Below the pieces are notes generated by a model, which did no database searches, had not been told where the DNA came from, and worked only from the letters and a program-made list of their open reading frames with translations. A stretch of DNA of 33,820 bases from the NCBI GenBank assembly GCA_964580745.1, contig CAZOKS010000002.1:1-33820 (forward strand). Reading direction: 5' to 3'. This document shows, one piece after another, positions 1-32,884 of the stretch. The stretch comes from an uncultured Methanosarcinales archaeon. Its GTDB lineage: Archaea; Nanobdellota; Nanobdellia; Woesearchaeales; UBA119. The translations under genes and the position numbers were made by a program. Each line of letters opens with the position of its first letter. The stretch's first letter is position 1.

Positions 1-1138
1 ATTCTCCCAAACATTCTTGCTCAGAAAAATTCCAATCCCTGCATTTATATAATTCTGTACCCACTGCAACCTTAATAAGTTGTCCTTGACTGAAATCGAT
101 GTCCTGGGGATTTATAGCAAAAGAGGATATAAACGCAGGATTGTGCTTCCTTACCTTGTCTATGGGAACATACTCAAGCCCAAGCTCCACCCCTGCTTCA
201 ATGTTTACATCCTCTAATTCTACCCTTTTAATATTCTTTATGTTTGGAGACAACCTGAGGTTTATTCTTCCTGAATGTTGTGTTGACAATGCATTTACTC
301 TGTTTGAACCTTCTTTCTCAATAATCTCTGCCCGGATGAACCGCTCTTTTCCTTTGCTGGTTCTTATCTTGATTTGAACCGAGTTAGATGTATCCAAGTT
401 AGAAGTATTATTCAGATGGACATTGTTCTCTTTCCCAATATTATTCTCCTTATTTACACTCTTTGAAGCTACCACTTCAAAAGATGCATTGGGGCTATCA
501 TCTCTTCCCTCAATATCAAGCCTAACAAAGTATTCTCCCTCTTCCGGCGGCTTAAACCTAACAACCTCCTGGCCAGAACTTAGGGAATATCTTTTGCTTC
601 CATGTTCAACTATCAATCTATAATCAAATTTGCAGTTTATGCTTATCTCAACCTCTTCTCCAATATGATAAACCCTTTTATCTGTTTCAACCGTGATATT
701 ATTATTGTCATCACCAATATCTTTCTTTGAAGTATTGGCTGTTGGGACAGCTGGTTTTGTTGGCATCTCTTTTTTTATTTCCCCAATAGAATCTTTACTC
801 TCTACTATCTCATTCAATACAAATTCCTGTTTTTCTGTAATATTGTCAGCCTGAAGGATTATCTCATATGGCCCAACAAATTTTGGCTGGATAGTTATGT
901 TTGATAAATTGCAATCGATACATTTCTTTGAACTCCCAGGGCCCTTGATAGTTAAGTTATAAACTGAGAGATTTTTAATCCTGATATCTACCTTTTCTCC
1001 CTCGTAATAATTTTCTCTATCTATCTGGAGAAGACTTGAGCTTACAAGGGTTGCAAGGCTTATTGATAGCAATACAACTAATAAAGTAATCTTCAATTGT
1101 CCCTCCTTTGATAGTTTTGCTGGACTCATATTATTCAT
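1..1138 (-). CDS. Large secreted surface protein, 5' part only (gene continues past the left edge); N-terminal paralogue of the 3151-aa protein
   Basis: Absent from the ORF track because no stop lies in the window. My minus-strand translation from ATG 1138 is open to position 1; there is also an in-frame ATG at 1129, 10 nt after AAGGAG. Sequence: MNNMSPAKLSKEGQLKITLLVVLLSISLATLVSS (signal/anchor), beta-rich modules with EGEYFVRL, then FAINPQDIDFSQGQLIKVAVGTELYKCRDWNFSEQECLGE. This parallels FAIDPRGLNFSFAQIELEASGNALYKCQEYDFDAQECLGGW in the 3151-aa ORF. The plus-strand ORFs 99-377 and 423-623 are its antisense shadows. Confidence 0.8.
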   Translation of the reverse strand, partial: MNNMSPAKLSKEGQLKITLLVVLLSISLATLVSSSLLQIDRENYYEGEKVDIRIKNLSVYNLTIKGPGSSKKCIDCNLSNITIQPKFVGPYEIILQADNITEKQEFVLNEIVESKDSIGEIKKEMPTKPAVPTANTSKKDIGDDNNNITVETDKRVYHIGEEVEISINCKFDYRLIVEHGSKRYSLSSGQEVVRFKPPEEGEYFVRLDIEGRDDSPNASFEVVASKSVNKENNIGKENNVHLNNTSNLDTSNSVQIKIRTSKGKERFIRAEIIEKEGSNRVNALSTQHSGRINLRLSPNIKNIKRVELEDVNIEAGVELGLEYVPIDKVRKHNPAFISSFAINPQDIDFSQGQLIKVAVGTELYKCRDWNFSEQECLGE

Positions 1139-1648: not shown

Positions 1649-4600
1649 CTACTTTATCTCGGTATAGAAGGCAACCTTGTCATTGTCGGGCCCGACCAAT
1701 TGCCCCAAAGTAGCGGGGATCCGAATCTCAAAGTCTCTTGTTTCATTATATCCTTGCTGGGATTTATTCACTACCGTTAAGAAGATCACATCCTGAACCT
1801 CTGAATAAGTTGTTCCCCCATCGCTAAAATCCCATAAAATGCCCGTCTTGAAACTAGTGGAATTTGTGCTATTGACTACAGGGATATTTGTAATCTCTTG
1901 ATTATATACCTCCAGCTCTATTGTCTCCTTTGGATTTCCATTCTCCAGATATGTGGCATTAACAGAGTCAAAAAAAGTTGAGGAATTCAATGCATTATCC
2001 AACTCGCCAAAGTCCTCAATCCGTTCATTGCCCGAAGTGTCTCTCCCCAATGCTTGTAGGGATTGCCAATTAACATCCGCATCATAATCCGAAACATATA
2101 TGTTGCTTCCTGTTGAGTTTGCCACTTGCCATTGGAATATACCCTCCAGCTCTTCATCCTCAAGGGTTATCGTATCATTTGTCTCTCCTCCTGCATAATG
2201 CCAGAACTCTACTGTAATCGATTTAGAAGCATTGTTATTTGTCTCGTTCTCTTCCTCTATTTCGTTGCTTGGGTCCACTACTACAAAAATATCATTTGTA
2301 CCGAGCTCTGCAGTGTATTCAACACTCACGTTCTCCGATTCCAATGCTGTCAGGTTTATCGTTTGATTGCTTCCAATTTGGCTTCCGGAACCTCCAATCT
2401 CATTCTCCCAGAACTGAACAGTAATGTTCTTTGCATCTCCTCCGCCTATATTAAATACAGTCGCGGTAATATTCACAATTGAACCCTCGCTTGGCGAATC
2501 ATCACTGAAAAAGATGTTTGAAGAGTTAACCTCTAAATCAGGATAAGGTGAATAAAACAGATATGTCTCGCTCTGCCCTATATTTGTTGCATTATCAATA
2601 CAGCTTACATTCCAATAATGAGGCCCTCCCTCTAAATCGACCACACTCACATTCTCCTCGCTTCCATTTAACACCAAGATGTTCTGTTCGATAATCTCCC
2701 CATCCAATGTCAAATTGCAAATAAGCGACTCAGCCATGTTGTCCTCAACACTAAAGTTTAGGTTTGTAGTATCCGTGTCAATGGAAGAATCATTCTCAGG
2801 ATATGTAAGGTTGATACTTGGCTCAACAGTATCATAATAAACAATTATAGATGAAGAATTTTGTGCATTCAGCGCATTATCCTTTGCCTCAACTTTTATC
2901 TCGTATGTCCCATTCTGCAACCCAAGAAGATTCGCGCTATCCTCTGAATTGTTTCCTGAATTGCCCTCTGAATTGAAAGAATCATTCACATACACCGTAT
3001 AGTTAATAGGATTTGCCATATTGTCTTCAAGGATGAAGGAAATAGAAGGATTAGAATTAAACCAGGTATGATTTACAGTGGTAATGGTGCTGCTGGGTTC
3101 AACCAAATCAACATACAAAACCCTCTCAGAACTGATACCATATGCATGATAAGACGAATTGTCATAGCATTCTATTTGCCAGATATTTGTGTTGTTCATC
3201 CCTGAAACAGTAAAGGAATTCTCGCTGTTGTTTATTATGTTAAATTTAGTATCCTTTATTGCCCCATTCAAAACAATGGAACAATTCTCGATTCCGGTAT
3301 CATCAGTAACATTAAATCGAAATGTATTCGTATCTTGATTGCTCCATGTCAGATTCTTAGGAGACGTCACTTCAATCACGGGCGGAAAAAATACATTAAA
3401 TATCCTTGTTTCCGATGTGTTTGAGTTGTTTGCTTCATCAAAGCAGGTAACATTCCATAAGTGCTCTCCTTCACTTAGGTCCGTAGCCAGATATGAATTT
3501 TCCTCTCCCACATTCACATTACTCAAACCCTTATCTTCACCATCTAATGTAATATAACAGTCCGCAACAGACGCAAGGTTATCATAGACAGTATAATTCA
3601 AACTTACATCTGAAGTAGAAAAGTTTTCCTGATTAGGAGGATAATTAAGCTCAATGCTTGGCTTTTCAGTATCAATGTATATTATTTTAGAGGAACTGTT
3701 TTCCTTATTGCTCGCATCATCCTCTCCTTCTAAAACCAATAAATACTCACCATCCGGTTGAGTGTTCAAGGTAATGTTCTCAATAGAGTTGTTGCTAACA
3801 TATCCCTGATTCTCGGAACTTCCATTAATGTATAAAGTATAGTTGAGAATACTATCTAAGCTATCTATTATTCTAATGCTGATATTAGGTGCCGAGATGT
3901 TGAACCAGCTCTCGTTTGCTGTTAAAATCTCGCTTGTTGGAGCATTGGTATCCAGTGTAATATAAAGCTCACTTGAATTCTTTCTTCTATCCAAATAATC
4001 TAATCCTTCCACAAAAATAGTATTCAGACCCTCGTTCAGGTTAACACTGATGTTTTCTGAAACACCATCTATCCCTTCCCCTTCTTCTCCACTGAACATA
4101 TCATTCACATAAATTGAATAGTTTATTGCGCCGCCAGTATAATCATGGAGCGTAAAATTTAAATCCACATTACTGCTATTGAAAACGCTTTCATTCTCAG
4201 GAGAATTCCATTCCACCCACAACACAGATATGTTTAGTGTAGCATTATTATTAGATTCATTCAATTCATTTATGCTGTTTGAAGGATCTGCCGAAACAAA
4301 TACCACATGCATTCCTTCAGTAATGTTCCATTCTATATAAAATAAGGAAGAGTCATTATAAGCCACATTCTTCTGATCGCTTCCAATCAAGCTGCCCCCA
4401 TCATCAGGCCTTCCATCCCAGAACTCCACCTCAACATTGGAGGCATCTATACCTCCGATATTAGATACATTAGCAGTTATGTTTATCGTATCATTTATGC
4501 TTGGGTTTGTGTTATTGAAACCTATCAAAGACGCATTAATGTAAAGATCAGGCTGGTTGACAACAAAACGCCATGTCACCGAATAATCAGTATTGTTCAA

Positions 4601-7600
4601 ATCATCAGTACAACTCACATTCCAGAAATGCTCTCCATCGGACAGATTTTTTACTAACTTTGAGCTAACCTCTCCTGAAAAGCTTGTTATATTCTCTTCA
4701 AGGATATCCCCTTCTGGATCAGAAATGAACAAATCACAGCTAACCTCTACCGAAGAATTAAAGTCGGTGGCAGTCCAATTGAACAAAATATCATTTTGAT
4801 TAAAGAGCTGGTCATCGCTAGGATGATGTAGCTCCACACTAGGCCCTTCCAAATCAACATAAAAGCTCTTTGAAGAACCATTCGTTCCTGTATTAGAATT
4901 TGGATCAGAACAATTCACATCCCATGTATAGCTTCCGTTTGGCAAGTCATAGAGGTTGAAGCTCGCTTCTACCCCTGATTCCACTCCTGCGTTTGTTTCG
5001 TTTGCTTCAGAATTTAATATTAGGGTGCATAGGGATATGTTTCCAGAGTTGTCAGTCGCAGTAAAGTAAAGAGTCACATTAACACTATTATTCCTATAGT
5101 TGGCAATCGGATTGCCCAAGCTAACCTTGGGCGGTTCCTGAACAGCAAAATCCTCGCTATTGCTTTGGTTCTCATTTAGAGCATTATCCCTGCAAAAAAT
5201 ACTCCAATTATAATCCCCATCATCTATCCCTTCTATCGTAAAAGTCGTAGGTGCTCCATTATTGCTTGTAATATCGGTAACATTCAAGCTGTCATTTAGC
5301 CAAAGATCACAGCTCAGCTCAGTAGCAAGATTGTCAGAGGCAGTCCAATTAAACAATACCGAGCTAGAATCCAGCTCTTCTGAGTTGATAGGTGAATTAA
5401 GAGAAATTTGAGGAGACAGGTTGTCCACATAAAAGGTTTTGTTAGTGGGCATAAAGCTATTCCCATCGCTGTCATTACACTGAACACTCCAAAGGTATGC
5501 CCCTTGTGCAAGATCTCCCATCTCAAAGGTATTGTTTTGTTTATTTAATACAAAAGAAGCAGTTCTATTGTAGCTCCCATTTATATATAACGCACAGCCC
5601 GTTATCAGGATATCATCCGAAGGGAAATATGTTAGGTTTACATCTGTTTCATTGAACCAGCTTTCATTATCGGGCGCAACCAAAGTAACGTTGGGTGGTG
5701 CTTCAACATCAAAAAACCAGGTGTCAGAAACATTGAAGTTCCCTGCTTTATCAGTGCAATCCACACTCCAGTTGTACGTTCCATCATTTAAAATATAATA
5801 ATAGGTATATTCAGTTCCATTGGTTGTATTCAAGTCGGAACCTATTGAATAAGTAGAGCCTTCATCGGTAAGATAAACATCACAGCTTAACTCATCTGAG
5901 ATTTTATCTTTAGGAATAAATTTGAATGAAACATTATTTCTTGCTACAGTGGAATCATTCTCAGGATAAGTTAATTCAATCTCAAACGGCTCTTCTGAAT
6001 CCACATAATAAGTCCAATTCTCCGGAGCCATTCCCGAAAGATTATTAGTATCATAGCACTTAACATTCCAATTATACCTTCCATCTGGCAGAGTTACAGT
6101 AAAGTTGTTCTCTACCTTTGCATTAATGTCATACTTTGTTTCGTTTTCTTGGCCGTTTAGCATAAGAGTACAGTTTGTAAAATTCTCGCTTCCCAGACTT
6201 GGAATGTATTTGAAACTAACATCATGGAATAAGTCTCCATCACCATCCTCTGGCGATGTTAGATTAACTCTCGGGCTTAATAGCACTGTAAAATTCCTCG
6301 TTTCAGATATGTTTGTATTGGTTGCATTATCAACACATGAAACACTCCAGTTGAAATCCCCGTTCCTCAACCCAGTAACATTAAACAAGGCAGGTACACC
6401 ATTATTGCTCTCAATATTGCTTCCATTAACACTATCGTTTATTGAAAGATTACAGAGTAATCCTGTTGCGAAATTATCTGCCGCAGTCCAGTTAAAGGTA
6501 TAAACTGTAGTGTTAATCGTATAATCATTTTCAGGCAGATTTAATGAAATTGTTGGCCCAGTTCTATCCACAATAAACCTCCAAGTATCAGAACTATCTG
6601 AATTACCATATACGCCGCTGTCATTGCACTTCACAAACCAGTTATATTCAGCTTCAGCAGGGGAAGAAAGGGTGAAGTTGTTTGTTTGCCCTTTAAGAAC
6701 ATTAGTTGAATTGGACTGATTAAATGTGCTATTGATATACAGAGAACAGCCCTCAATGTCATCATTATCACTTATATTATACTCAATAAGCACATTACTC
6801 TGATTAGTATGCGTATTGTTGCTTGGTGATATTGGCTCAACAACAGGAGTCTGGTTAATAGTAAAGTTTCTTGTTTCAGAGTAGTTTATATTGCCTCCAA
6901 TGTCTGTGCAGCTCACATTCCAGTAATGCACCCCGTCTTTATAACCGTCTAGAGTAACATCATATTGATTTCCACTACTCACAATAGAAGTATCATTCTC
7001 TACTCCATCCACATACAAGGTGCAGTTTAGAGTGTCATAGTTGTCTGTAGGTGTGTAAGAGAAGGCAACCTCAGAATCAGTAAAATAAGCATCATTCCCT
7101 GGGCTTTGCAGGTTTATATACGGTTTAGTTAAATCAACATAAAGGGTTGCATTCCCTGTTGAAGCATTATTGCCATTATTATCATAACAAGTAACGCTCC
7201 AATTATACTCTGTTTCATCAAAAGAAACGCTAAAATTATTCAATCCATTTATCAGCACAGACTGATTACTTTGATTATAAATCCCATTTATGTATAACTC
7301 ACATTCGTCAAGCGCAAAATTATCAGAAGCATTATAGGTAAGCTCCACACTTGTTTCATTCGTCCCGCTTTCATTCTCAGGAGAATACAAAGAGACTTGA
7401 GGCGGCTCGTCAGATATGTTAAAGCTTCTTGTCTCCGAGGTATTGGTATTGTTAGCCAAATCTTGGCATGCAATATCCCAAATATAGTATCCTATTTCAA
7501 ACCCTTCGATGGTGGTAGTCGCAGGAGTAGCATTATAAGCAGTAATCGTTGTATTTCTTGTTCCGTTTATCCTCAAATCACAGCTCATGTTTGCAGCTCT

Positions 7601-10600
7601 GTTATCATAGGCAGTCCAGTTAAACTCAATGTCTGGGGAGGTGGTGCTCCAATCATCTATGGGCTTATTAAGCTCAATCAGATAAGGCCCTTCATAATCC
7701 ACCTTAAGATACCATGTAGATGAATTTCCTACCCTTGATGATGTATCTTGGCAGGAAACACTCCAGTTATATTTCCTTTGCTCAAGTGATGAAAGGGTAA
7801 AGTTATTCATTCCACCATTGTTTATAGGGCTGGAATTAGTTTGGTTAAATATGCCATTTATGTACAAACTACAATTATCAATCTGACTATACGAAGAAGG
7901 GATGTATTCTAGGGTTACGCTTGAGCTGTTTACCCAGCTATTATTTTTGGGAGAGCTCAAATTTACTTCAGGCGCTTCAGTGCTAGCTACACTAACCTCA
8001 ACTGCCTCAGTATAAGAAGTTGAGTATTTACTTTGAGCAGCACACCTTATATATGTAGAACCCGGGGAAGACGCATTCAGTCCAAAGGATGTTGAATTAG
8101 ATGTGTTGAAAACATCTCCCATTGCGTGAGGATTAGTCTCGCTTCCATTCAACGAAATAATCCCTGAGCCAGATATAGCACTCCAACTCCCAGAGGCATT
8201 TGTCTGAGCAGTAACATTGGTTGAAAGGCAAGTTCCATCGGTGCAATTGACTTGACAAGATAATGTTAAGGAATTCCCCTGATCAACATATACCTTGGAG
8301 GAAGGAGCTGTTTTTGTTGCTTCCAGCGTTCCCAGCTGGGTAAAGCCAGTTACATTCACAAAGCTTGAAATATGGTCAATAAGATGCACAAAATCTCTGG
8401 ATTGGGCAGGATGCGTGTTTGTAAGCTCTATTTCGTAATAGAGCTTATCAGTGCTAAGAAGCCTTTTATCACTTGAAGGATTGCAGCTTCCCGTTGTGGC
8501 AGCTCCTGATGAGCTGGCCGTCCCTACTGTATTAGAGCATATTAATTCCTCTTCATCTGAACTATTTAAAATATAAAGCCACCAACTTACCTCAACCCTT
8601 GTATCGGAGGTTTGAAAATAAGTGCTGAATAAAACATCCCCTGATGAGGAGACCTCAGCACCATTCGCACCCATAAAAGGAGATTCCGCTTCTACAACCA
8701 ACTCGGAAGAGGAAGCAGCGATTGTTCCAGAGACAGAATTCTGGGTCCCATCTGTTCCCTGTTCTAAGGAAATCTCGCAAGGGAAGGAACTGCAATCACT
8801 TGTTGAAGATTCAAACCAATTACCATAATAAATTGGCTTGATAACTGATACTGTTAAGCTCCGAGAACTGCTTTGATTTGCATTCCCTGCTTCATCTACA
8901 CATCTAACATACCAAGAATAATCCCCATTATCAAGGTTATGATTAATGGTTTGGTTCTGATTCTTTGTTATTGATGTGTCTGTTTTTACACCGCTTCCAT
9001 TTACATAGAGGGTGCAATTGTCTATTCCAGAATCATCACTAACATTATACACAAAGGGAACCACATTAGAATCAGTATATGTGTCTCCATTACTTGGCAA
9101 AACCAAACTAACATCAGGCCCACTTCTATCGATTATGATTGTTCTATTAGTAGGAGAGGTAGCACTATTGCCATTAGAGTCCCAACACTCTACATTCCAA
9201 GCAAAATGCCCTTCATTGTTAAATGCAGCTATTATAGTGTTCTGACTCCCATTCGTAATAGAGTAAGTAGTGTTCTTAGCACTCCAGCTTGTTTCATTCG
9301 TGTATATGGAACAATTACTGATAGAGTACTCCTCGTTACTTGGGGTATAAGTGAACTCTTCTGAGGAGGCATTTGTTCTGTAATTGTTGTCAGGAGAATC
9401 AAGGGAAACCGAAAAAGCTCCAGGTTCAGTATAATTAATGGTATAGTTAACTCCATCAACACTTATGCTCATGCTTGGGCTTTTTCTTGATCTTCCCGGA
9501 GCCTGGAAATCCATGCTTGAATCTATATATATATAGTAGGTGCAATAATCAGGCCAATTGCTGCAATCCAAATTTGTAAAAGAGCGAGAACCGCTCTGCT
9601 CAATGCTTGAGTTGGTCCAACTTACTGATGTGGTTGAGGTATAAGACCCACTTCCAATAGTTGCTTCATCCCCATCATCATGGTTTTGGTCATGGTCAAA
9701 ATCCCCGCTTTGCTGAGCATTGCTCATAGTGCATCCATCAGCATTAACAGTAATAGTAACATTGATAATCATCTCTTCAAGAAAGAAACTTGTTGCATCT
9801 TGAGGGATGTTCAATGTAAAAGGGCAAAAGGTCGAGCAGGAAAGCGAGCCGCTATTCTGCTGATTGACCGAATCAGAACAACTGCATCCCACAGATGTGT
9901 TTACCTCGCTATACAATGGGTCTTCAGGCGTAAGCATAATGGTATAATTCTCTCCAGGAACAATATCCCTATCCTTCTGCCATCCACCCAAGCATTCCTG
10001 AGCATCAAAGTCATACTCTTGGCATTTATACAGCGCATTACCACTCGCTTCCAATTCAATCTGCGCAAAGGAAAAATTTAATCCTCTCGGATCAATAGCA
10101 AAGGACTGTACCGCTCTATTCCTGTTAACCCATACCTCTTTATTATCAATATCCTCCATCCTCAAACTATCCAGATTTTTGAGCTTAAGGTCATGAAACC
10201 TAATCTTGTTAACCTTGTTTGTTGGGTTAAGAACATCAATAAACTCTCCTCTGAAAGACCTGCCATATTCCCCCCTTACCTGCTTGCTTTGCCCTGCATG
10301 ATTCTTAATTTTTATAGGTATGGTAGCAAGCTTTTTCTCTTGGCCAAAAGAAGGGAGTGTCAGTGCTTTTTCTTCTCCAAGTATTTTCTCAGATTGCTTA
10401 TCAAATTGTTTATTTGTTTGCTTCCCTGATTGCAGCCCAACATCGCCGGCTTTATCCCCAACAAAGAAACTCGCTTCGTCAATTATCTTTCCCGAATCCC
10501 TCAGCTGGACAAAGTATTCCCCATTCTCAGAAGGAGCAAACCGAATCTCTTTGGAAAGCTCTAAGAGTTTGAAGCTTTTATCTTTATGAACAACAAACAG

Positions 10601-11104
10601 CTCCAAGGAAGGGTTATTAATGTTTCCCCCAACAAGCTGCACAACAAGCTCCTCTCCCTTTTGGAGTTTATTTGAGTTGATTCTCAGAGAAGGATAGCTG
10701 TTCCCCTCTTTTTTCTGAGAAAATTCCTTTTTATCCGAATTTATCTCACCTGAAACAACAAACTCAAGACTACTCATATCCCTGCCTGATTTATCCCTAA
10801 GAAAAACAGAATATTCACCTTCCTGAGCAAAACTTAATATTATAGGAAAAATCAACTCTCCCCAATACATACTTCTTCTTCCATCCTTGACCATTATTAA
10901 GTCATATTCCTTAGAAACATCTTTTCCATTCATGTTTTCAGGAACAAGCCTTAACTCTATCTTTTCATTAATGCCATAAACAATCTTCTCAAGCGGATTA
11001 AAAGAAACCTCAAAAGGCTGAATCTCAGAAAAAGAGCTATGATTACCTAAAACGATGAATACAAGTACAACTAATAAACCCGCAAAAATCTTTGGCCTTT
11101 CCAT
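1649..11104 (-). CDS. Giant (3151 aa) secreted adhesin-like protein with about 20 Ig-like repeats, two CARDB-like modules and a distinctive C-terminal domain
   Basis: 9456-nt uninterrupted ORF with an N-terminal hydrophobic signal/anchor (IFAGLLVVLVFIVLG). The N-terminal region has EGEY(S/F)V modules and the LYKC..(Y/W).F..QEC motif. Two Ig-like repeats lie at about 8840-9420, followed by a unique ~290-aa region and then the repeat arrays listed below. No C-terminal TM. N-X-S/T sequons occur about once per 10 residues in the repeats I inspected. Confidence 0.93.
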   Translation of the reverse strand: MERPKIFAGLLVVLVFIVLGNHSSFSEIQPFEVSFNPLEKIVYGINEKIELRLVPENMNGKDVSKEYDLIMVKDGRRSMYWGELIFPIILSFAQEGEYSVFLRDKSGRDMSSLEFVVSGEINSDKKEFSQKKEGNSYPSLRINSNKLQKGEELVVQLVGGNINNPSLELFVVHKDKSFKLLELSKEIRFAPSENGEYFVQLRDSGKIIDEASFFVGDKAGDVGLQSGKQTNKQFDKQSEKILGEEKALTLPSFGQEKKLATIPIKIKNHAGQSKQVRGEYGRSFRGEFIDVLNPTNKVNKIRFHDLKLKNLDSLRMEDIDNKEVWVNRNRAVQSFAIDPRGLNFSFAQIELEASGNALYKCQEYDFDAQECLGGWQKDRDIVPGENYTIMLTPEDPLYSEVNTSVGCSCSDSVNQQNSGSLSCSTFCPFTLNIPQDATSFFLEEMIINVTITVNADGCTMSNAQQSGDFDHDQNHDDGDEATIGSGSYTSTTSVSWTNSSIEQSGSRSFTNLDCSNWPDYCTYYIYIDSSMDFQAPGRSRKSPSMSISVDGVNYTINYTEPGAFSVSLDSPDNNYRTNASSEEFTYTPSNEEYSISNCSIYTNETSWSAKNTTYSITNGSQNTIIAAFNNEGHFAWNVECWDSNGNSATSPTNRTIIIDRSGPDVSLVLPSNGDTYTDSNVVPFVYNVSDDSGIDNCTLYVNGSGVKTDTSITKNQNQTINHNLDNGDYSWYVRCVDEAGNANQSSSRSLTVSVIKPIYYGNWFESSTSDCSSFPCEISLEQGTDGTQNSVSGTIAASSSELVVEAESPFMGANGAEVSSSGDVLFSTYFQTSDTRVEVSWWLYILNSSDEEELICSNTVGTASSSGAATTGSCNPSSDKRLLSTDKLYYEIELTNTHPAQSRDFVHLIDHISSFVNVTGFTQLGTLEATKTAPSSKVYVDQGNSLTLSCQVNCTDGTCLSTNVTAQTNASGSWSAISGSGIISLNGSETNPHAMGDVFNTSNSTSFGLNASSPGSTYIRCAAQSKYSTSYTEAVEVSVASTEAPEVNLSSPKNNSWVNSSSVTLEYIPSSYSQIDNCSLYINGIFNQTNSSPINNGGMNNFTLSSLEQRKYNWSVSCQDTSSRVGNSSTWYLKVDYEGPYLIELNKPIDDWSTTSPDIEFNWTAYDNRAANMSCDLRINGTRNTTITAYNATPATTTIEGFEIGYYIWDIACQDLANNTNTSETRSFNISDEPPQVSLYSPENESGTNETSVELTYNASDNFALDECELYINGIYNQSNQSVLINGLNNFSVSFDETEYNWSVTCYDNNGNNASTGNATLYVDLTKPYINLQSPGNDAYFTDSEVAFSYTPTDNYDTLNCTLYVDGVENDTSIVSSGNQYDVTLDGYKDGVHYWNVSCTDIGGNINYSETRNFTINQTPVVEPISPSNNTHTNQSNVLIEYNISDNDDIEGCSLYINSTFNQSNSTNVLKGQTNNFTLSSPAEAEYNWFVKCNDSGVYGNSDSSDTWRFIVDRTGPTISLNLPENDYTINTTVYTFNWTAADNFATGLLCNLSINDSVNGSNIESNNGVPALFNVTGLRNGDFNWSVSCVDNATNTNISETRNFTVLLSPRVNLTSPEDGDGDLFHDVSFKYIPSLGSENFTNCTLMLNGQENETKYDINAKVENNFTVTLPDGRYNWNVKCYDTNNLSGMAPENWTYYVDSEEPFEIELTYPENDSTVARNNVSFKFIPKDKISDELSCDVYLTDEGSTYSIGSDLNTTNGTEYTYYYILNDGTYNWSVDCTDKAGNFNVSDTWFFDVEAPPNVTLVAPDNESWFNETDVNLTYFPSDDILITGCALYINGSYNRTASFVLNKQNNTFEMGDLAQGAYLWSVQCNDSDGNSFMPTNKTFYVDNLSPQISLNSPINSEELDSSSVLFNWTASDNLATELSCDLWLNDSLNVTDITSNNGAPTTFTIEGIDDGDYNWSIFCRDNALNENQSNSEDFAVQEPPKVSLGNPIANYRNNSVNVTLYFTATDNSGNISLCTLILNSEANETNAGVESGVEASFNLYDLPNGSYTWDVNCSDPNSNTGTNGSSKSFYVDLEGPSVELHHPSDDQLFNQNDILFNWTATDFNSSVEVSCDLFISDPEGDILEENITSFSGEVSSKLVKNLSDGEHFWNVSCTDDLNNTDYSVTWRFVVNQPDLYINASLIGFNNTNPSINDTINITANVSNIGGIDASNVEVEFWDGRPDDGGSLIGSDQKNVAYNDSSLFYIEWNITEGMHVVFVSADPSNSINELNESNNNATLNISVLWVEWNSPENESVFNSSNVDLNFTLHDYTGGAINYSIYVNDMFSGEEGEGIDGVSENISVNLNEGLNTIFVEGLDYLDRRKNSSELYITLDTNAPTSEILTANESWFNISAPNISIRIIDSLDSILNYTLYINGSSENQGYVSNNSIENITLNTQPDGEYLLVLEGEDDASNKENSSSKIIYIDTEKPSIELNYPPNQENFSTSDVSLNYTVYDNLASVADCYITLDGEDKGLSNVNVGEENSYLATDLSEGEHLWNVTCFDEANNSNTSETRIFNVFFPPVIEVTSPKNLTWSNQDTNTFRFNVTDDTGIENCSIVLNGAIKDTKFNIINNSENSFTVSGMNNTNIWQIECYDNSSYHAYGISSERVLYVDLVEPSSTITTVNHTWFNSNPSISFILEDNMANPINYTVYVNDSFNSEGNSGNNSEDSANLLGLQNGTYEIKVEAKDNALNAQNSSSIIVYYDTVEPSINLTYPENDSSIDTDTTNLNFSVEDNMAESLICNLTLDGEIIEQNILVLNGSEENVSVVDLEGGPHYWNVSCIDNATNIGQSETYLFYSPYPDLEVNSSNIFFSDDSPSEGSIVNITATVFNIGGGDAKNITVQFWENEIGGSGSQIGSNQTINLTALESENVSVEYTAELGTNDIFVVVDPSNEIEEENETNNNASKSITVEFWHYAGGETNDTITLEDEELEGIFQWQVANSTGSNIYVSDYDADVNWQSLQALGRDTSGNERIEDFGELDNALNSSTFFDSVNATYLENGNPKETIELEVYNQEITNIPVVNSTNSTSFKTGILWDFSDGGTTYSEVQDVIFLTVVNKSQQGYNETRDFEIRIPATLGQLVGPDNDKVAFYTEIK
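1652..2203 (-). other. C-terminal ~184-aa domain of the giant protein (unnamed module, copy 1 of 4 in the window)
   Basis: FWHYAGGETNDTITLEDEELEGIFQWQV...NIYVS...FFDSVNATY...NIPVVNSTNSTSFKTGILWDFSDGG...VIFLTVVNKSQQGYNETRDFEIRIPATLGQLVGPDNDKVAFYTEIK(stop). It aligns by eye with ORFs 23821-24582 and 24648-25424, and with aa 93-262 of the 1369-aa protein. Confidence 0.65.
2204..2548 (-). other. CARDB-like module 2 of the giant protein
   Basis: PDLEVNSSNIFFSDDSPSEGSIVNITATVFNIGGGDAKNITVQFWENEIGGSGSQIGSNQTINL...DIFVVVDPSNEIEEENETNNNASKSITVE. This shows the V.N.G...A / F..D / D..N...E.NE.NN pattern typical of CARDB domains. Confidence 0.6.
2549..4219 (-). repeat. Tandem array of 6 Ig-like protein repeats (~93 aa, ~279 nt each)
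   Basis: Repeat starts read as LWVEWNSP, NAPTSEIL, EKPSIEL, FPPVIEV, VEPSSTI and VEPSINL. Three repeats have the Cys pair (DCYITLDG..WNVTCFD; NCSIVLNG..WQIECYD; ICNLTLDG..WNVSCID) and three have no Cys at all. DNA identity between units is low; the repeat is visible at protein level. Confidence 0.75.
4220..4555 (-). other. CARDB-like module 1 of the giant protein
   Basis: QPDLYINASLIGFNNTNPSINDTINITANVSNIGGIDASNVEVEFWDGRPDDGGSLIGSDQKNV...HVVFVSADPSNSINELNESNNNATLNISV. The pattern matches module 2. Confidence 0.6.
4556..7984 (-). repeat. Tandem array of 12 Ig-like protein repeats (~95 aa each), mostly alternating between two subtypes
   Basis: Subtype A looks like P.V.L.SP.N....V.L.Y..S.....C.LYING..N........NNF.......YNW.V.C.D. 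Subtype B looks like P.I.L..P........F.WTA.DN.A..LSCDL..N.....NG.....T..G...G.Y.W...C.D.A.N...SE.R.F. The order I read is A,B,A,A-like,A,B,A,B,A,B,A,B. 3429 nt / 12 = ~286 nt per unit. Confidence 0.75.
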
Positions 11105-12159: not shown

Positions 12160-12672
12160 TTAGTCCCCTTTATTTCCATTGTCCTCCCTAACTCGCCTCA
12201 TAATCTCGCTCTTCAAGTCATACTCCTTCTTTTCTTTATCCTGTTTAATTTGTTTCTCAATTTGGCTAATCAACTCTCCAAGTTCGTTAATCCGTTCCTC
12301 ATCATCTTCAATCTCGAGAAAGCCAATCTTCCCCTTAGCCATCGTTAATAACGCCGAAGCATGAAACATATCCTTTCCTTCTTTTCTGGCAGCTGAAATC
12401 TCTCTATCCAACTCAGCCATCTTTTCCTTCAAACCCTCAAGCTTCTCCATTCCAACCCGAACATCTATTAGAGAGGATTCTTTCATCACATTAACCTTCT
12501 CAAGGTATTTCTCTGATTCTTTCATTACTTTATCAAACTCCTCTCTGCTTATGCTTCCCTCATTCTTTTTCTCATTCCTATTTTCATAACTCTCAGGATT
12601 TCTCTTTTCAGTTTTGTCTTCTTTATTCCTTACCTTATTCATTTCCTGGGCCATTAGACAACGCCTCAACAA
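12160..12672 (-). CDS. Small cytoplasmic coiled-coil protein (about 160-170 aa), function unknown
   Basis: The ORF limit is ATG 12672. In-frame ATGs at 12654 (MAQEMNKV) and 12642 (MNKV) are more plausible starts. ATG 12642 overlaps the TAA of the upstream 1369-aa gene as ATGAATAA. The protein is charged and helical with no TM. Confidence 0.7.
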   Translation of the reverse strand: MLRRCLMAQEMNKVRNKEDKTEKRNPESYENRNEKKNEGSISREEFDKVMKESEKYLEKVNVMKESSLIDVRVGMEKLEGLKEKMAELDREISAARKEGKDMFHASALLTMAKGKIGFLEIEDDEERINELGELISQIEKQIKQDKEKKEYDLKSEIMRRVREDNGNKGD

Positions 12673-15600
12673 GCTTGTCCTTCTTCATTAGATTACCAAT
12701 CCTTTCCGCGAATTCCTCATCCTCAAGGGAGTATTTTATCCAATTGGAAAAATCATGCTTTTCCTCATTTACATACTTCCTGAATGTCTCATCTGGCATA
12801 TCCTTTAATATCTCCTTTAATTCCTTAAGATTAGAGGCCACCTTTCCATCGGAAAATCTGAACTCCTTTCCTTTAGGAGCCTTCTTATTCAGCAGTCCTT
12901 CAAGATTATTCTTAGATTCAGGGCTCTCCAGAGTATCATCTTTATTCTTTTCCTTAGTTGTTTCATCAACATTCCCTTCACCTTCTTCGCCAGCCTCTTT
13001 GTTATTGCTTTTCCCTTCCTTTTCTTCCCTTTCTTTCCCCTCTTCTTTATTTTCTCTATCCTCTTCTCCTTTTTCTTTTCCTCCATCTTTCTCTTCTTTT
13101 CTATCTTCTCTGTTCTCATTATTTTCTCCTTCATCTCCTTTTTCTTCACTTACAGTATCGCTTTCTTCATCGTCTTTCCCTTCTTTTCTATCTTCTCCGT
13201 TCTCTTCACCCTTTCCATCCTCTCCATCCTTTCCATCATCCTCCTTGCTTTCGTTCTTCTTTTTATCATCCTTGCCTTTTTCTTTTTTAGGAAGTTTTTC
13301 TCCCTTGCTCCTTTTATCCAACAACTCCAAAATCTCCTTTCGGTCTTTAGTTTCATCAAGCAAATCAGCGAGCTCATCATCTCCAACTGCATTTCGAATC
13401 CAATCAGCAAAATCATTTTTCTCATCATTAACATGGAACTTGAAGTCTGAGTCCTTCATTGCCTCAATCTCTGCATACAAATCTCTGGGATTTACTACCA
13501 ACATGCCATTGTTAAGCTTCAGCATATTTTCAGGCTTTACATCTCTGTTAAATCTCTCCGTTACGGACTTCTCTGATTCCCCTTCCTTCTTCTTACCTTC
13601 TTCATCACCTTTTTTCTGTTCAGCCTCAATCTTCTCCCTTTCCTTCTTCGCTTTCTCCAGCTCCCTTCTCATCTCCTCTTCCGAAACCTTCGGCCTCTCC
13701 AACTTCTTTGGCTTTTTGCCAAGCTTCTTCCACAGCTTCTCAACCCTGGGCTTCAGGCCATCAAGATAGATTTTGGCCATGTTGAAACCTCCCGCCTTAA
13801 CCTTATCTAGTGCAAGTTTCAACTCCAACTTCAAGTCAAACACATCCTGGTCCAACTGTTCCAGCTGCTCCAACTCAAACTGCATCTGGTCAATAATATC
13901 ATTGTATTCGTTGTATTTCTCAATCTCTTCATCAGAAAGCCTCTCAACCGAATGCTTAATAGGTTTGAAAGTAACAAAGTAAGGCCGGCCTCTATTATAT
14001 GCCGAATTTTGCACCATCCCAGTTCCAACGCTTGCTTTAACCAAACTCTTCAAAACCTCATCACCGTACTTGGTCTTAATCCTCTCCAAATCCCCTTCAT
14101 CCCTTGTTCGCATCTGGATTTCCGTATTGATGTTAGCTTTAATCTGCCCCACGAAGTCCGCCAAAACCTGGCTAATAAGCATAACGCCAATTCCCCACTT
14201 CCTAAACTCTCGGCAAGCCCTTTCAATCTGGATAAAGCCCTCCCCACTTCCACCAAACTTGGATAGCAACCTATGGACCTCATCGTAAACCAAGCATAAT
14301 CTTAACTCTTGAGACTCATCAAAACCCTCATGGAATACCTCTCTAACTGTGTTCGCAACAAATACATCAATATCCTTAGGGTCAAGCTTATGAAGAGCAA
14401 AAACCTGAATTTCTCCCGGTTTCATATACTTCTTTATGTTAATAATCTCTTTAGCATCTGTAATCTCTCGAATGTTTCCCTTGAAAGCTTTAGCATCATT
14501 CGGCTTCATCCCAAATCCTGAATAAAGATTCAGCAACCCCTTATTCTCCAATTTCCTTAAAAATCCAGTCCACTGAGCAGTAGGATCAAACACAATAACA
14601 GCAACATCCTTATCCAACAACTCTTCAATAATTACCTGGGCAGCGAAACTCTTACCACCACCAGTACTACCTGCCACAATCGTGTGAGTCTTAAAGTTCT
14701 CAATCTTGAAATAAGTCCTATTATTCGTTTCTGCAATCTTCCCAACATATATCGTATCGGGTCCAGGTTTAGGAAGCTGCGAATACTCCACCTTCAAATG
14801 ATACTTCTTCTTCGCTTCAATTTCCTTTCTAAGCATAAATATGCCGAAAATCAATAAAGCCAATCCAATACCCATTAAGATGGCCTGCCAAACCCTTATC
14901 TTTCCAAACAAGAGATGCTGATAGAAAGGCTCTGTTACAGTAAAAACAGCACTAGTACTGCTCGTTAAATCAAGATAGCTGGCGCTTGCCCTGATTATAT
15001 ATTCGCCTGTAGGCAAATCAGGAGGCAGCTCATAATTCTTAATTATTGAAAGAGAAGTCCTCAAAAAAACATTCGTTTGATGAGTCCATAAAGTCTCATT
15101 GCCATTTATATTCTGAATAGTATAAACCAACTGCACCGGATACTGCTGGTCGGTAAGCAGATTTGTTAGAGAATTCTTGAATCTAACAAACGAGCCCGGA
15201 TAGTAATTCTTTTCAGGAACGCTGATTTCCATTAACATCGCCTGAACAGGACTCTTCTCCTTGCCTAAAATCTCAATAATGATAGGGATTGTCGTATTAA
15301 TCCCGCCAGTAATGTTAAGCGTTCCATTGTATACCCCTGGAGTGCTGTTTCCAAAGAAAGTCAAGGTCAAATCATCAAGGTCCTTTGCCCCAATAAACGT
15401 TCCCCTTTTATCCATCATTGTTATTTTCTTAACATCTCCTGTAATGTTAAATTGAAGCTGAATCCCCTTGTTCTTAAAACTCTGGATATGAATAACCTCT
15501 TGGGCAAACTCAGCCAGCCTAATCTTCTTATAGATTTTATTGACAGAAATCCAGAACTCCTTCCCCTCAATCTCAGAGGGCCTTTCTTTTCTATATGGGA

Positions 15601-16744
15601 TTTCGCCAGGACCCACATTCGGCCCAAAATCCGGTCCCACATTTTGTTCCGCGGGCGGGCTGTCATACTCTTTCTGCTCGACCTCCAGCTCCATGATAAT
15701 ATTATGCATGGTTGAATTGCCTTCCGGAATCGTGATATTGCTTTCATATACCTGATAGTTCTCCTTTATCGCGATTATCTGCGTCTCGCCCGCCCGCGTT
15801 GTCAGATTGTAAAAACCCTTCTCATCCGTAACCGTGGATTTTGGGCCGGATGTTATCAGCACATTCTCTAATGGATTCCCGCTTATATCAGTTACAATTC
15901 CATAAACTATTCCTTTTACATATGGTTCTTCTTGCCCCGAAATACAAACATTTGTAGGGTCTATGAAAACATAGTATTTTGTGGTTTGATTGTTGTGAAC
16001 AGGCAGGAGAAACTGGTAGTTGTAGTATCGATTGGTAAACCCCTTAACTAATCTCTCATTCAAGATGGTAACCACGACAGGATTCCCATTGCTGTCCTTC
16101 AAAAGGCCTGTTTTGAATGTGCCCTCTTCAGTGCCACTTCCTACTTTGGTTGTCGCAGCAGGTATGTTGTTGATGGTTTTGGAGCCAATCTCTATGCTCA
16201 TTGTCCCGGTAAAGGTATTGGAAGCAGAATCATAGTCATCTGGGTTCGAATTTATGAAGGCATTAACCTCGGCAGGAGACATTGGAACAAGGTCTTGCAC
16301 AACTATTTCTTCAGGAGGTACGGTAGATGCAAACAATAGGTTGTCTTTTCCTTCTTCTACACAATCAAAGAACATATTGGCTTCTTCTGTTCCCCCCGGC
16401 TCAAATGTGTATTCCCATGGCTGAGAAAAACCAACGCCAAATGCAGCACCGTATAAGGCAACCCAGTTGTATGTTGGTCTTGTGTATATAAGATTCATAT
16501 TATAGATATAACCGCCTCGCCCTTCATGATATATTATAAAACCGGTTATTCCTTCACGCCCTAAAAAAGAGGCTGTGATTAGGATTATTGCGCATACAAC
16601 AAGAGATATGATTATCGCCCAGTTCCTTTTACTATCCCTTTTCCTTTTATCTCTTTCATCTAGGAATTTCTCAAGGGCAGGCTCTCTTTCTATGAGATGT
16701 TCAATATCCTTATTTATCTGCTGCGGTTTTTTTATCCCAACCAC
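12635..16744 (-). CDS. Two-TM membrane protein (1369 aa): large ectodomain, cytoplasmic HerA/FtsK-superfamily P-loop ATPase, low-complexity linker and two conserved tail modules
   Basis: GTG start at 16744, directly after an in-frame TAG.
- Basic N-terminus.
- TM1 at aa 42-62 (16559-16621).
- Ectodomain with a carboxypeptidase-regulatory-like beta-sandwich (GIVYGIVTDISGNPLENVLITSG..TDEKGFYNL, about 15690-15930).
- TM2 at aa 618-638 (14831-14893).
- Walker A GSTGGGKS (14648-14671).
- Walker B LCLVYDE (14279-14299).
- Further context: VIVFDPTAQW, MLISQ, NTEIQMRTRD.
- Coiled coil, then a K/E/D/G-rich linker (about 12888-13295).
- Tail modules at about 13296-13560 and 12638-12887. Confidence 0.9.
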   Translation of the reverse strand: MVGIKKPQQINKDIEHLIEREPALEKFLDERDKRKRDSKRNWAIIISLVVCAIILITASFLGREGITGFIIYHEGRGGYIYNMNLIYTRPTYNWVALYGAAFGVGFSQPWEYTFEPGGTEEANMFFDCVEEGKDNLLFASTVPPEEIVVQDLVPMSPAEVNAFINSNPDDYDSASNTFTGTMSIEIGSKTINNIPAATTKVGSGTEEGTFKTGLLKDSNGNPVVVTILNERLVKGFTNRYYNYQFLLPVHNNQTTKYYVFIDPTNVCISGQEEPYVKGIVYGIVTDISGNPLENVLITSGPKSTVTDEKGFYNLTTRAGETQIIAIKENYQVYESNITIPEGNSTMHNIIMELEVEQKEYDSPPAEQNVGPDFGPNVGPGEIPYRKERPSEIEGKEFWISVNKIYKKIRLAEFAQEVIHIQSFKNKGIQLQFNITGDVKKITMMDKRGTFIGAKDLDDLTLTFFGNSTPGVYNGTLNITGGINTTIPIIIEILGKEKSPVQAMLMEISVPEKNYYPGSFVRFKNSLTNLLTDQQYPVQLVYTIQNINGNETLWTHQTNVFLRTSLSIIKNYELPPDLPTGEYIIRASASYLDLTSSTSAVFTVTEPFYQHLLFGKIRVWQAILMGIGLALLIFGIFMLRKEIEAKKKYHLKVEYSQLPKPGPDTIYVGKIAETNNRTYFKIENFKTHTIVAGSTGGGKSFAAQVIIEELLDKDVAVIVFDPTAQWTGFLRKLENKGLLNLYSGFGMKPNDAKAFKGNIREITDAKEIINIKKYMKPGEIQVFALHKLDPKDIDVFVANTVREVFHEGFDESQELRLCLVYDEVHRLLSKFGGSGEGFIQIERACREFRKWGIGVMLISQVLADFVGQIKANINTEIQMRTRDEGDLERIKTKYGDEVLKSLVKASVGTGMVQNSAYNRGRPYFVTFKPIKHSVERLSDEEIEKYNEYNDIIDQMQFELEQLEQLDQDVFDLKLELKLALDKVKAGGFNMAKIYLDGLKPRVEKLWKKLGKKPKKLERPKVSEEEMRRELEKAKKEREKIEAEQKKGDEEGKKKEGESEKSVTERFNRDVKPENMLKLNNGMLVVNPRDLYAEIEAMKDSDFKFHVNDEKNDFADWIRNAVGDDELADLLDETKDRKEILELLDKRSKGEKLPKKEKGKDDKKKNESKEDDGKDGEDGKGEENGEDRKEGKDDEESDTVSEEKGDEGENNENREDRKEEKDGGKEKGEEDRENKEEGKEREEKEGKSNNKEAGEEGEGNVDETTKEKNKDDTLESPESKNNLEGLLNKKAPKGKEFRFSDGKVASNLKELKEILKDMPDETFRKYVNEEKHDFSNWIKYSLEDEEFAERIGNLMKKDKLVEALSNGPGNE
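15959..16468 (-). other. Ectodomain segment (aa 93-262) of the ATPase protein carrying the unnamed module shared with the giant adhesin and the small secreted proteins
   Basis: TYNWVALYGAAFG...NLLFAS...DDYDSASNTFTGT.SIEIGSKTINNIP...GTFKTGLLKDSNGNPVVVTILNERLVKGFTNRYYNYQFLLPVHNNQTTKYYVFIDP. Compare FKTGILWDFSDGG..VIFLTVVNKSQQGYNETRDFEIRIPA..FYTEIK at the giant C-terminus. Confidence 0.6.
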
Positions 16745-21816: not shown

Positions 21817-21918
21817 AACAGAAGAATATAGGAATAGATGTGGAGTAAAAAGATGTGAGGTAAAAAGACCTACTAAATACTAATAATGAATGAACTAATA
21901 AAGAATAGCTGATGAAGA

Positions 21919-23820: not shown

Positions 23821-24582
23821 ATGGAAACAAATAATTGGAAAGTGTTGGTAGTTACAATGCTCTTAGTAGGGGTTTTTTCTGTAGGCTTAGCTCTTGCAGA
23901 GAATGTGCCCCTTGGTGCTGAGAGTGCAAATGTTGTTCGTTCTGAAACATCTAATGCTAGCTTATATACGCCAGATTCGGTGGATGCAATTGCAGGAAAC
24001 CTGACAGAGCTTAATATAACAGGTGTGGCTCAGACAAAATCTTGGCAGGGTTTCTACGGTAATGTTTCTGGTGAAATAATCTTGGCTGATTCCTCCGGAT
24101 ACAGGTTTTATGATTGGTCTGTTGCAGAACCTCAGGGAGAGGTATTTGCTTCGGTAAACGACACAATAACTTGGACAGACATCAACTGTGCTCCAATCAG
24201 CGATGATTCTACCTATCGGACAAATTGGTATAGTTTTTATGGCATGGCGGAAAGCGACTATGATGACATAAATGATACATATAACTTTACAAATCATCCT
24301 GAGTTTTATGTTGGCTTTTCAACTTTGAATAACTGCCAGACAGCTTATACATTTGTGAATAATGTAAGCCAAAGCACGGATTTCCCAGCAGTCCTGCTTG
24401 CAAGTGATTCCAACTCCACTTTGATATTTACTTCTATCCTGGAAGATAAAACAGCAGGTCAAAGACAAGGAATCACAGGCTACGATGGACAGAACTATGA
24501 TTTTCAGGTTTTGGTAGCAGAGAATGGCCAACAAGGTAATAGTCAGGTAACACCTTATTACTTTTGGCTGGAGATAGAGTAA
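23821..24582 (+). CDS. Small Sec-secreted protein (253 aa), stand-alone copy of the unnamed module
   Basis: Signal peptide VLVVTMLLVGVFSVGLALA/E. Body: SWQGFYGNVSGEIILADSSGYRFYDW...GEVFAS...DYDDINDTYNFTNHPEF...DFPAVLLASDSN...YDFQVLVAE...TPYYFWLEIE(stop). Confidence 0.88.
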   Translation: METNNWKVLVVTMLLVGVFSVGLALAENVPLGAESANVVRSETSNASLYTPDSVDAIAGNLTELNITGVAQTKSWQGFYGNVSGEIILADSSGYRFYDWSVAEPQGEVFASVNDTITWTDINCAPISDDSTYRTNWYSFYGMAESDYDDINDTYNFTNHPEFYVGFSTLNNCQTAYTFVNNVSQSTDFPAVLLASDSNSTLIFTSILEDKTAGQRQGITGYDGQNYDFQVLVAENGQQGNSQVTPYYFWLEIE

Positions 24583-24647
24583 ACCCTCTATCTTTTTGTT
24601 TTATTTTTTCATGTGTATATTTATATTGAAGGTCGGTGGTGTATAAA

Positions 24648-25424: not shown

Positions 25425-25455
25425 AGGTAATCAAGTCTCATTGAGGTATGTAAAC

Positions 25456-32860: not shown

Positions 32861-32884
32861 ATGATAAACAAATTAGAGAATCGG

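Follow-up and report, generated by a model that had tools for sequence, protein, structure and literature searches.

A domain shared by giant, small and membrane-anchored proteins of DPANN archaea is a probable surface-retention module

We analysed a 33.8-kb stretch of DNA from an archaeon of the tiny, symbiotic-type DPANN group (hereafter the window, meaning all 33,820 nucleotides, which form positions 1 to 33,820 of contig CAZOKS010000002.1) that encodes a giant surface protein of 3151 amino acids (aa). Judged from sequence, the last ~185 residues of this protein essentially certainly belong to an extracellular domain family that has no annotation so far and was met mainly in genome records with the titles Woesearchaeota, Pacearchaeota or Nanoarchaeota. 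Its members show three architectures, each represented in the window: stand-alone Sec-exported proteins of ~250 aa, the extreme C-terminus of large proteins, and the membrane-proximal ectodomain of a HerA/FtsK-like ATPase with two transmembrane (TM) segments. The most likely role of the domain is to keep large adhesin-like proteins attached to the cell surface. The giant and its small relatives are placed as follows.

1649..11104, minus strand: gene for the 3151-aa giant surface protein, laid out as an N-terminal signal-peptide-like segment, immunoglobulin (Ig)-like repeats (Big_13, Big_7), two CARDB modules and the C-terminal domain (open reading frame (ORF) list, translation, Pfam, sequon count).
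1652..2212, minus strand: C-terminal domain of the giant, residues 2965-3151, of probable docking type (hhalign; AlphaFold2 (AF2) predicted local distance difference test score (pLDDT) 91.4; secondary-structure match to the 253-aa model).
2225..2542, minus strand: second CARDB module of the giant, residues 2855-2960 (Pfam PF07705, Foldseek 3idu).
23821..24582, plus strand: small secreted paralogue A, 253 aa (translation, 64 homologues, AF2 model, conservation profile).
24636..25424, plus strand: small secreted paralogue B, 262 aa from a GTG or 258 aa from the ATG at 24648 (BLASTP to paralogue A).

The domain occupies window positions 1652-2203 on the minus strand (giant residues 2968-3151), from the W of 'EFWHYAGG' to '...AFYTEIK' and the stop codon. 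It lies outside the preceding CARDB module (PF07705, residues 2855-2960, 66.2 bits versus a cut-off of 22.7, E 3.3e-18), which has a CARDB fold by Foldseek (3idu, E 5e-8, TM-score 0.89 on the target) and an end, 'NETNNxA', that is kept in 17/17 giant-type relatives. A reading of the DNA made earlier without database searches (the sequence-only reading) had aligned the last ~184 residues of the giant with both small paralogues, through to the last residue. Pairwise, the case is slender: paralogues A and B are clearly related to each other (BLASTP E 1e-32), the giant C-terminus has no BLASTP match to the 253-aa protein and a weak one to the 262-aa protein (E 4e-4 over 96 residues), a two-sequence hidden Markov model does not detect the giant, and a word-indexed search with the giant C-terminus alone gives 2 matches. 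On pairwise sequences alone the homology claim is borderline.

Profiles place the giant firmly in the family. A 65-sequence profile of the small proteins matches giant residues 2967-3129 colinearly (independent E 2.9e-7), and with 3 giant-type C-termini, hhalign reports 93.8% (E 1.7e-7) for a comparison with 42 small proteins. With 17 giant-type C-termini, gathered from related loci for a deeper profile, hhalign against the small family reaches 98.75% (E 1.4e-16) over 167 columns that correspond to residues 72-253 of the 253-aa protein, that is, to its end, which confirms the homology as first proposed. Real scores exceed every shuffle in both directions (28.9 versus at most 14.2 bits; 26.9 versus 23.0; 22.6 versus 11.7) when the giant C-terminus is shuffled 2000 times and each small protein 1000 times. 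The orthologue of paralogue B in one related locus (L001, 10808-11647) matches giant residues 2968-3150 by plain BLASTP (E 6.8e-6), and the giant-type motif W-[HQ]-x-x-Y-G-N-x-S is intermediate to the 'WQGFYGNVSG' of the small proteins. Common to the core are the motifs W-x-x-x-Y/G-G-N, F-x-T-G-I-L-W-D / F-P-x-V-L-L, D-[FY]-[EQ] and a terminal [FY]-Y-x-E-[IL]; five polar residues (D19, D82, T87, D160 and E185, in the numbering of the alignment) are conserved in all three subfamilies.

The alignment had also been taken to cover the full mature length of the small proteins, and on this point it falls short: it spans about 80%, and nothing in the giant corresponds to mature residues ~27-71 of the 253-aa protein. 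Paralogue A comprises a signal peptide (~1-26), a conserved N-terminal stretch (27-62) and the domain core (63-253), and the unmatched residues hold the length-invariant stretch, with its P-x-G and A-x-A-G-N-x-T-E-L motifs, plus the first strand. The 27-62 stretch is moderately conserved, with an occupancy of 0.93-0.99 in 118 diverse representatives. Giant-type and HerA-type copies begin at profile positions 51-72, versus 1-15 for the small proteins, and the giant-type copies lack the N-terminal ~25-45 residues of the latter. Other large family members keep the stretch internally (profile start 21-35), so it needs no free N-terminus. Two cysteines invariant in the small family, C123 and C172, have no equivalents in the giant or the giant-type subfamily. 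Class III (type IV pilin-like) signal peptides were considered for the small proteins and rejected on sequence inspection.

AF2 models built from separate alignments give an equal fold. For the small protein (alignment of small proteins) the core is modelled at pLDDT 80-96, and the N-terminal stretch, at pLDDT < 50, is unplaced in the monomer. The last 300 residues of the giant (alignment of giant-type proteins) form a compact two-domain unit with a pLDDT of 91.4 and a predicted template modelling score (pTM) of 0.82. Strands and helices follow in equal order in the two models, and the three-state class agrees at 129/171 aligned positions (75%). The predicted fold is mixed beta/alpha, with about 12 strands and 2 helices. 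In the giant, the second CARDB module is predicted to pack rigidly on the C-terminal domain, and the last CARDB strand sits at the sequence position of the first strand of the small proteins. Foldseek with the model of the 253-aa protein returned no domain match in the PDB (best E 0.73) or in BFVD (best E 0.03), with TM-scores < 0.2; with the giant fragment, only the CARDB half matched. Sequence profile searches of the PDB with the domain were empty.

The sequence-only reading had drawn a parallel with the tip adhesins of chaperone-usher pili and had pointed to an incomplete Ig-like fold or missing strand as its mark. The AF2 models give no sign of either. The secondary-structure summary contains no unpaired N-terminal segment or missing strand in the giant domain; because the giant is modelled confidently and the last CARDB strand stands in place of strand 1, there is no sign that a strand is missing, and because the mixed beta/alpha model has no Foldseek match to any PDB chain, any pilin included, there is no recognisable Ig-like pilin fold. 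Pfam and NCBIfam scans of the window proteins found no chaperone or usher genes, and there were none in the related loci. Of the tip-adhesin logic, a shared C-terminal docking domain is supported by homology and gene linkage; the particulars of chaperone-usher and donor-strand assembly (fold, strand and genes) are not, and a mechanism of the chaperone-usher kind is unlikely.

A related proposal is a donor-strand fibre of the small proteins, with the giant as tip subunit by virtue of a pilin-like domain that lacks the N-terminal extension. It would make good use of the 27-62 stretch, invariant in length, moderately conserved and left unplaced by AF2 in the monomer, and of the missing first ~25-45 residues in giant-type and HerA-type copies, a formal likeness of these large forms to a tip subunit without its extension. 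We nevertheless consider it very unlikely. In neither model does the domain match a PDB structure by Foldseek, and so it matches none of the chaperone-usher pilins or solved archaeal and bacterial fibre subunits there; the PDB holds no sequence match either. The giant domain is modelled with confidence with the CARDB end strand at the strand 1 position, many large members keep the N-terminal stretch internally, and the giant and the membrane protein both lack the extension, a misfit for a simple head-to-tail chain with a donor at its base. The missing chaperone and usher genes count against it too, and we know of no outer membrane in archaea of this group.

The family is large. An exhaustive profile search returned 1841 representative clusters at E <= 1e-3 and 526 at E <= 1e-30. 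Among the best 150 are 27 long proteins (325-2359 aa), and in 27/27 the domain ends no more than 2 residues from the C-terminus; a mid-protein domain occurs in 0 ORFs of 162 loci and the window. The passengers carried by large members vary: Ig repeats (Big_7/DUF2341), Beta_helix/NosD, Laminin_G_3 (a concanavalin-like lectin domain) and S59-like domains. Of the complete large members, most have an ordinary signal-peptide-like N-terminus and show no other anchor. Neither Pfam nor NCBIfam holds a family for the domain in any subfamily (Pfam at E <= 10, with 42 small-type and 30 giant-type members), and we found no description of it in the literature on DPANN and Woesearchaeota surface systems, HerA, CARDB or donor-strand complementation.

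In five large relatives with a small-type C-terminal domain (P0085, P0104, P0110, P0163 and P0189), we observed a Nup98/S59 autopeptidase-like domain (PF04096, up to 31 bits versus a cut-off of 28.4). Its H-F-S motif ('VQHFSAYSAAE') is conserved and, in the P0085 sequence, precedes the domain by roughly 130 residues. These features suggest a self-cleavage that would release a fragment made of Ig repeats and the domain.

Among species-representative genomes, 370 stretches encode relatives, and the best 80 of the 370 all lie in records titled Woesearchaeota, Pacearchaeota, Nanoarchaeota/Nanoarchaeia, Diapherotrites, unclassified 'archaeon'/Euryarchaeota, or 'binchicken' metagenome-assembled genomes (MAGs). 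The closest relatives of the window are records titled Candidatus Woesearchaeota: the nearest genome locus belongs to a Woesearchaeota MAG (81% identity), and one homologue, 58% identical to the 253-aa protein, carries the name Woesearchaeota at NCBI. Some 'binchicken' MAGs bear titles such as uncultured Methanosarcinales archaeon and Candidatus Saccharibacteria bacterium (loci L007, L008, L011 and others). These titles are probably wrong, because L007 is nearly identical to L001, a separate metagenome contig with a Woesearchaeota-type cluster.

The giant itself ends in ...GPDNDKVAFYTEIK, with no C-terminal TM segment or known sorting signal (PGF-CTERM and relatives), and an NCBIfam scan of its last 203 aa found no family. 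The earlier statement that the domain is the only candidate retention device at this end of the protein stands; besides it, the N-terminus has a signal-peptide-like hydrophobic segment, for which cleavage is presumed only. Upstream of the domain, Pfam matches (Big_13 6.7e-36, Big_7 4e-26, CARDB 3.3e-18) account for the repeats. N-x-S/T sequons number 184 in the giant. For the giant and the three small proteins encoded together (paralogues A and B and the 313-aa protein described below), sequon density is 3.6-6.1 per 100 aa, versus 0.3 in the ABC ATPase of the window, which supports an extracellular location of all four.

The third architecture belongs to a membrane protein whose gene the giant follows on the same strand, with short gaps between the genes in the window ORF list.

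12635..16744, minus strand: 1369-aa membrane protein with a HerA/FtsK-type ATPase (Pfam and NCBIfam matches).
15950..16528, minus strand: residues ~73-265 of the 1369-aa protein, an ectodomain copy of the domain (hmmsearch, hhalign).

From a basic N-terminus, the 1369-aa protein continues with TM1, the domain, a CarboxypepD_reg-like domain, further extracellular sequence, TM2, a cytoplasmic HerA/FtsK-type P-loop ATPase and two DUF5752-like modules. The domain copy comes directly after TM1 and is extracellular (hmmsearch 1.5e-12). With six HerA-type proteins, hhalign gives 99.3% against the small family (E 3.7e-20) and 95.7% against the giant type (E 8.8e-9). The ATPase is identified by Pfam DUF87 (1.7e-11), alongside CarboxypepD_reg and DUF5752, by partial NCBIfam matches to CedD, TraD, TraC and HerA, and by a Walker A motif, 'GSTGGGKS'; the protein also has a long, acidic K/E/G-rich tail. 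An alignment of homologues shows the long, GTG-initiated frame to be correct.

Several further observations concern this protein. A membrane translocase-like ATPase amid surface-protein genes hints at a trans-envelope machine. The DUF5752-like module, of ~80 aa, occurs in the window at 12635-13550 and 26840-27100 (both minus strand), in the cytoplasmic tails of the 1369-aa protein and of a 1057-aa TM protein, and it also stands alone in ~300-aa cytoplasmic coiled-coil proteins encoded just upstream of the small genes in many loci (L001 8533-9546, L003 8749-9657, L008 8845-9768); a possible role is that of a cytoplasmic interaction module linking the membrane proteins of the cluster. Opposite the part of the gene that encodes the K/E/G-rich tail, the plus strand has a 364-aa S/F/L-rich ORF (12675-13769); it is almost certainly a shadow ORF, and GC and AT skew in this region are extreme (GC skew about -0.49).

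Gene linkage ties the giant and small proteins together from both sides. It was assessed in 82 loci seeded with small genes, 35 of which form a long subset with about 10 kb on both sides, and in 32 giant-seeded loci with at least 5 kb downstream, drawn from metagenome contigs; counts were made by hmmsearch --max, since the default bias filter misses many giant ORFs. In the window, the two small genes are followed by a third.

25414..26355, plus strand: third cluster gene, encoding a 313-aa secreted, cysteine- and sequon-rich protein of a ~300-aa family, without the domain (translation, orthologues).

At least two small copies are present in 77/82 small-seeded loci. The B type, adjoining the A type, occurs in 68/82, as does an orthologue of the 313-aa protein. 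In the long subset, 24/35 loci encode a large protein of the C-terminal type, 5/35 the HerA type and 28/35 either one. Conversely, small genes are found in 14/32 giant-seeded loci, in 11 of them directly downstream on the same strand, and tandem large members (at least two) in 12/32. Loci L001, L003, L008 and L081 each encode a protein of 2.3-3.2 kaa (thousand amino acids) that ends in the domain, directly upstream of the small trio and on the same strand; in two relatives looked up by exact protein, a protein of 2778 aa and one of 3206 aa have the same ending and the same position relative to the A-B-third-gene trio. Other conserved neighbours in related loci are surface or TM proteins. These data support a functional link between the giant and small genes.

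The product of the third gene has only weak Pfam matches, of the fn3/Ig type, and is probably beta-rich or Ig-like. A relationship to the WxL-interacting DUF916 (PF06030, E 0.03) was considered and rejected, as the match is shown by 1/39 family members.

A C-terminal module on varied exported passengers, free copies encoded next door, a further copy on a membrane protein, and large proteins that lack any other anchor together form a signature of docking or retention, and a role of this kind for the domain is probable. What the domain would bind is a more tentative matter. We lean towards association between like domains, in which paralogues A and B, the membrane copy, or both, hold the giants on the cell, and rate this slightly short of an even chance. 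Homotypic binding is favoured over plain binding to the envelope because a two-TM protein displays the domain and because the small proteins consist of little else. The giant would be exported by Sec and, once its signal peptide had been cleaved, would be left without a membrane anchor; its C-terminal domain would then associate with the small proteins and/or the membrane-anchored copy, and the long Ig-repeat stalk and N-terminal region would project outwards as the adhesive part. The logic would be akin to that of a tip adhesin or of cohesin and dockerin, with a homologous domain as partner, and not to donor-strand exchange of the chaperone-usher kind. Homotypic co-assembly is plausible but unproven, and its geometry might be that of a fibre, a lattice or a discrete complex.

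Several points weigh against this reading. Binding between domains is inferred, and the AF2 monomer models, read without coordinates, give no hint of an open groove. Cleavage of the giant's signal segment is assumed; if the segment stayed uncleaved, the protein would be anchored at its N-terminus with the C-terminal domain distal. The HerA-type copy, near small genes in 5/35 long loci, is no obligatory neighbour, and about a third of the small clusters lack a large member within 10 kb.

Alternatively, each copy might attach to an envelope component unrelated to the domain by homology, for instance an S-layer protein, glycan or lipid, in the manner of WxL, SLH or CWB2 modules, so that all the proteins would be retained independently and nothing would co-assemble. 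We regard this as a plausible contender, if a less likely one. The strict C-terminal position, varied passengers and many paralogues per locus would suit an envelope anchor, the organisation parallels that of WxL clusters (PMC9772566, PMC1534035), and the membrane-proximal place in the HerA-type protein is compatible with binding something near the membrane. A two-TM protein, however, needs no envelope anchor, the tight pairing of A and B (at least two copies in 77/82 loci), which have little besides the domain, is more easily explained if they are structural partners, and the domain is not related in sequence to WxL, SLH or any Pfam family.

It is quite improbable that the domain is instead the working head of these proteins, a host- or ligand-binding lectin-like module or an enzyme, with the large proteins held on an uncleaved signal anchor or released and the small ones acting as soluble binders. 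The hydrophobic segment at the N-terminus of the giant could be such an anchor and the polar residues conserved in the three subfamilies could form a binding site. Yet the N-termini look like ordinary cleavable signal peptides, binders like carbohydrate-binding modules usually also occur at N-terminal or internal positions and the domain here is terminal without exception, and a place directly after TM1 in the HerA-type protein would be odd for a distal binder.

Association between like domains also admits an extension that we consider speculative and rather unlikely. The domain could be the self-assembling block of an as yet undescribed organelle on the surface of Woesearchaeota, Pacearchaeota and their DPANN relatives. 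A fibre or lattice of A and B would be nucleated on the extracellular copy of a hexameric HerA/FtsK-like ATPase and tipped or decorated by interchangeable giant adhesins, which would insert by means of their own copy of the domain. If so, it would be a new kind of archaeal apparatus for host attachment, and possibly for transfer.

The window has a low GC content (35-41%), and genes for secreted and membrane proteins dominate it. A second giant is encoded directly downstream of the first.

2..1138, minus strand: second giant paralogue, of which the N-terminal 379 aa are encoded before it runs off the window, its C-terminus lying outside (27% identity to giant residues 168-373, E 5.6e-16).

Upstream of the giant on the same strand are genes for two small coiled-coil proteins, the 1369-aa protein and a 1065-aa PKD/TM protein. 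The other strand holds an ABC (ATP-binding cassette) transporter, then the small genes of 253, 262 and 313 aa. Further TM proteins are also encoded in the window. The transporter is of the ABC-2 type (20833-23604, plus strand) and consists of an ATPase and a permease with a ~330-aa coiled-coil extracytoplasmic insert; it lies just upstream of the small genes, was considered as a component of the system and is probably not part of it, being present in 1-2/82 related loci. A 593-aa secreted protein (30300-32081, plus strand) has a terminal TM helix followed by a CxxC...CxxC zinc-ribbon-like cytoplasmic tail, with orthologues in 34/82 loci. A cysteine-rich secreted protein whose TM segment is C-terminal is encoded at the right-hand edge (32861-33820, plus strand).

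Among uncultured archaea, Woesearchaeota and Pacearchaeota are abundant; few have been grown, their genomes are reduced, and they are believed to live attached to other cells. A large unannotated family with no PDB counterpart here links giant adhesin-like proteins, a strictly conserved pair of small secreted proteins and a membrane ATPase, and it yields a concrete set of parts, open to testing, for the surface by which these archaea attach. It also provides a handle for annotation, in that any large protein ending in the domain can be marked as a surface 'cargo' protein.

In organisation, the closest analogue is the WxL/Csc clusters of Firmicutes, with small WxL (CscB), large WxL (CscC) and CscA/DUF916 proteins; the likeness is one of logic and not of membership. 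WxL/Csc clusters occur in lactobacilli, enterococci and listeriae, and their proteins use a C-terminal domain of ~160-190 aa for non-covalent retention (PMC1534035, PMC9772566). Every such cluster combines a small WxL and a large WxL protein with a DUF916 protein, and binding to peptidoglycan has been proposed (PMC9772566, PMC1534035). Shared with the archaeal loci are clusters of secreted proteins only, a small (~250 aa) and a large multi-domain protein with a common C-terminal domain, a third conserved secreted protein, and signal peptides in place of covalent anchors, so that these archaea offer a parallel to the small/large shared-domain logic of the bacterial clusters. The differences are that no match to WxL (PF13731) was found among 42 small-type and 30 giant-type members at E <= 10, that two small paralogues stand here in place of one, and that a membrane ATPase carries an additional copy of the domain. 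To our knowledge, peptidoglycan is not expected in these archaea, which is a further difference.

The tip adhesins of chaperone-usher pili, such as FimH and PapG, are similar in that a large adhesin ends in a subunit-like domain without the N-terminal extension of the subunits, and FimH likewise has its adhesive part at the N-terminus and the subunit-like domain at the C-terminus. The archaeal proteins differ: a recognisable Ig-like pilin fold is absent, as are chaperone and usher, and nothing indicates a missing strand. In the donor-strand fibres of archaea and Gram-positives (Sulfolobus threads, the bundling pili of Pyrobaculum, TasA), the subunits are likewise small, beta-rich, exported by Sec and extended at the N-terminus, and their genes lie in small surface-protein clusters. 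The present family matches no PDB chain by Foldseek or sequence, and nothing here is evidence of strand exchange. With cohesin-dockerin systems and the C-terminal domains of the type IX secretion system it shares the use of one conserved module at the extreme C-terminus of varied passengers; it departs from them in its presumed partner, which is a homologous domain, in having free-standing copies, in a module size far above that of a dockerin or a type IX C-terminal domain, and in the lack of sortase-like and type IX secretion genes. A shared C-terminal docking domain is a familiar principle, and what is new here is an undescribed fold and family, its occurrence in archaea and the unusual partner, a membrane ATPase.

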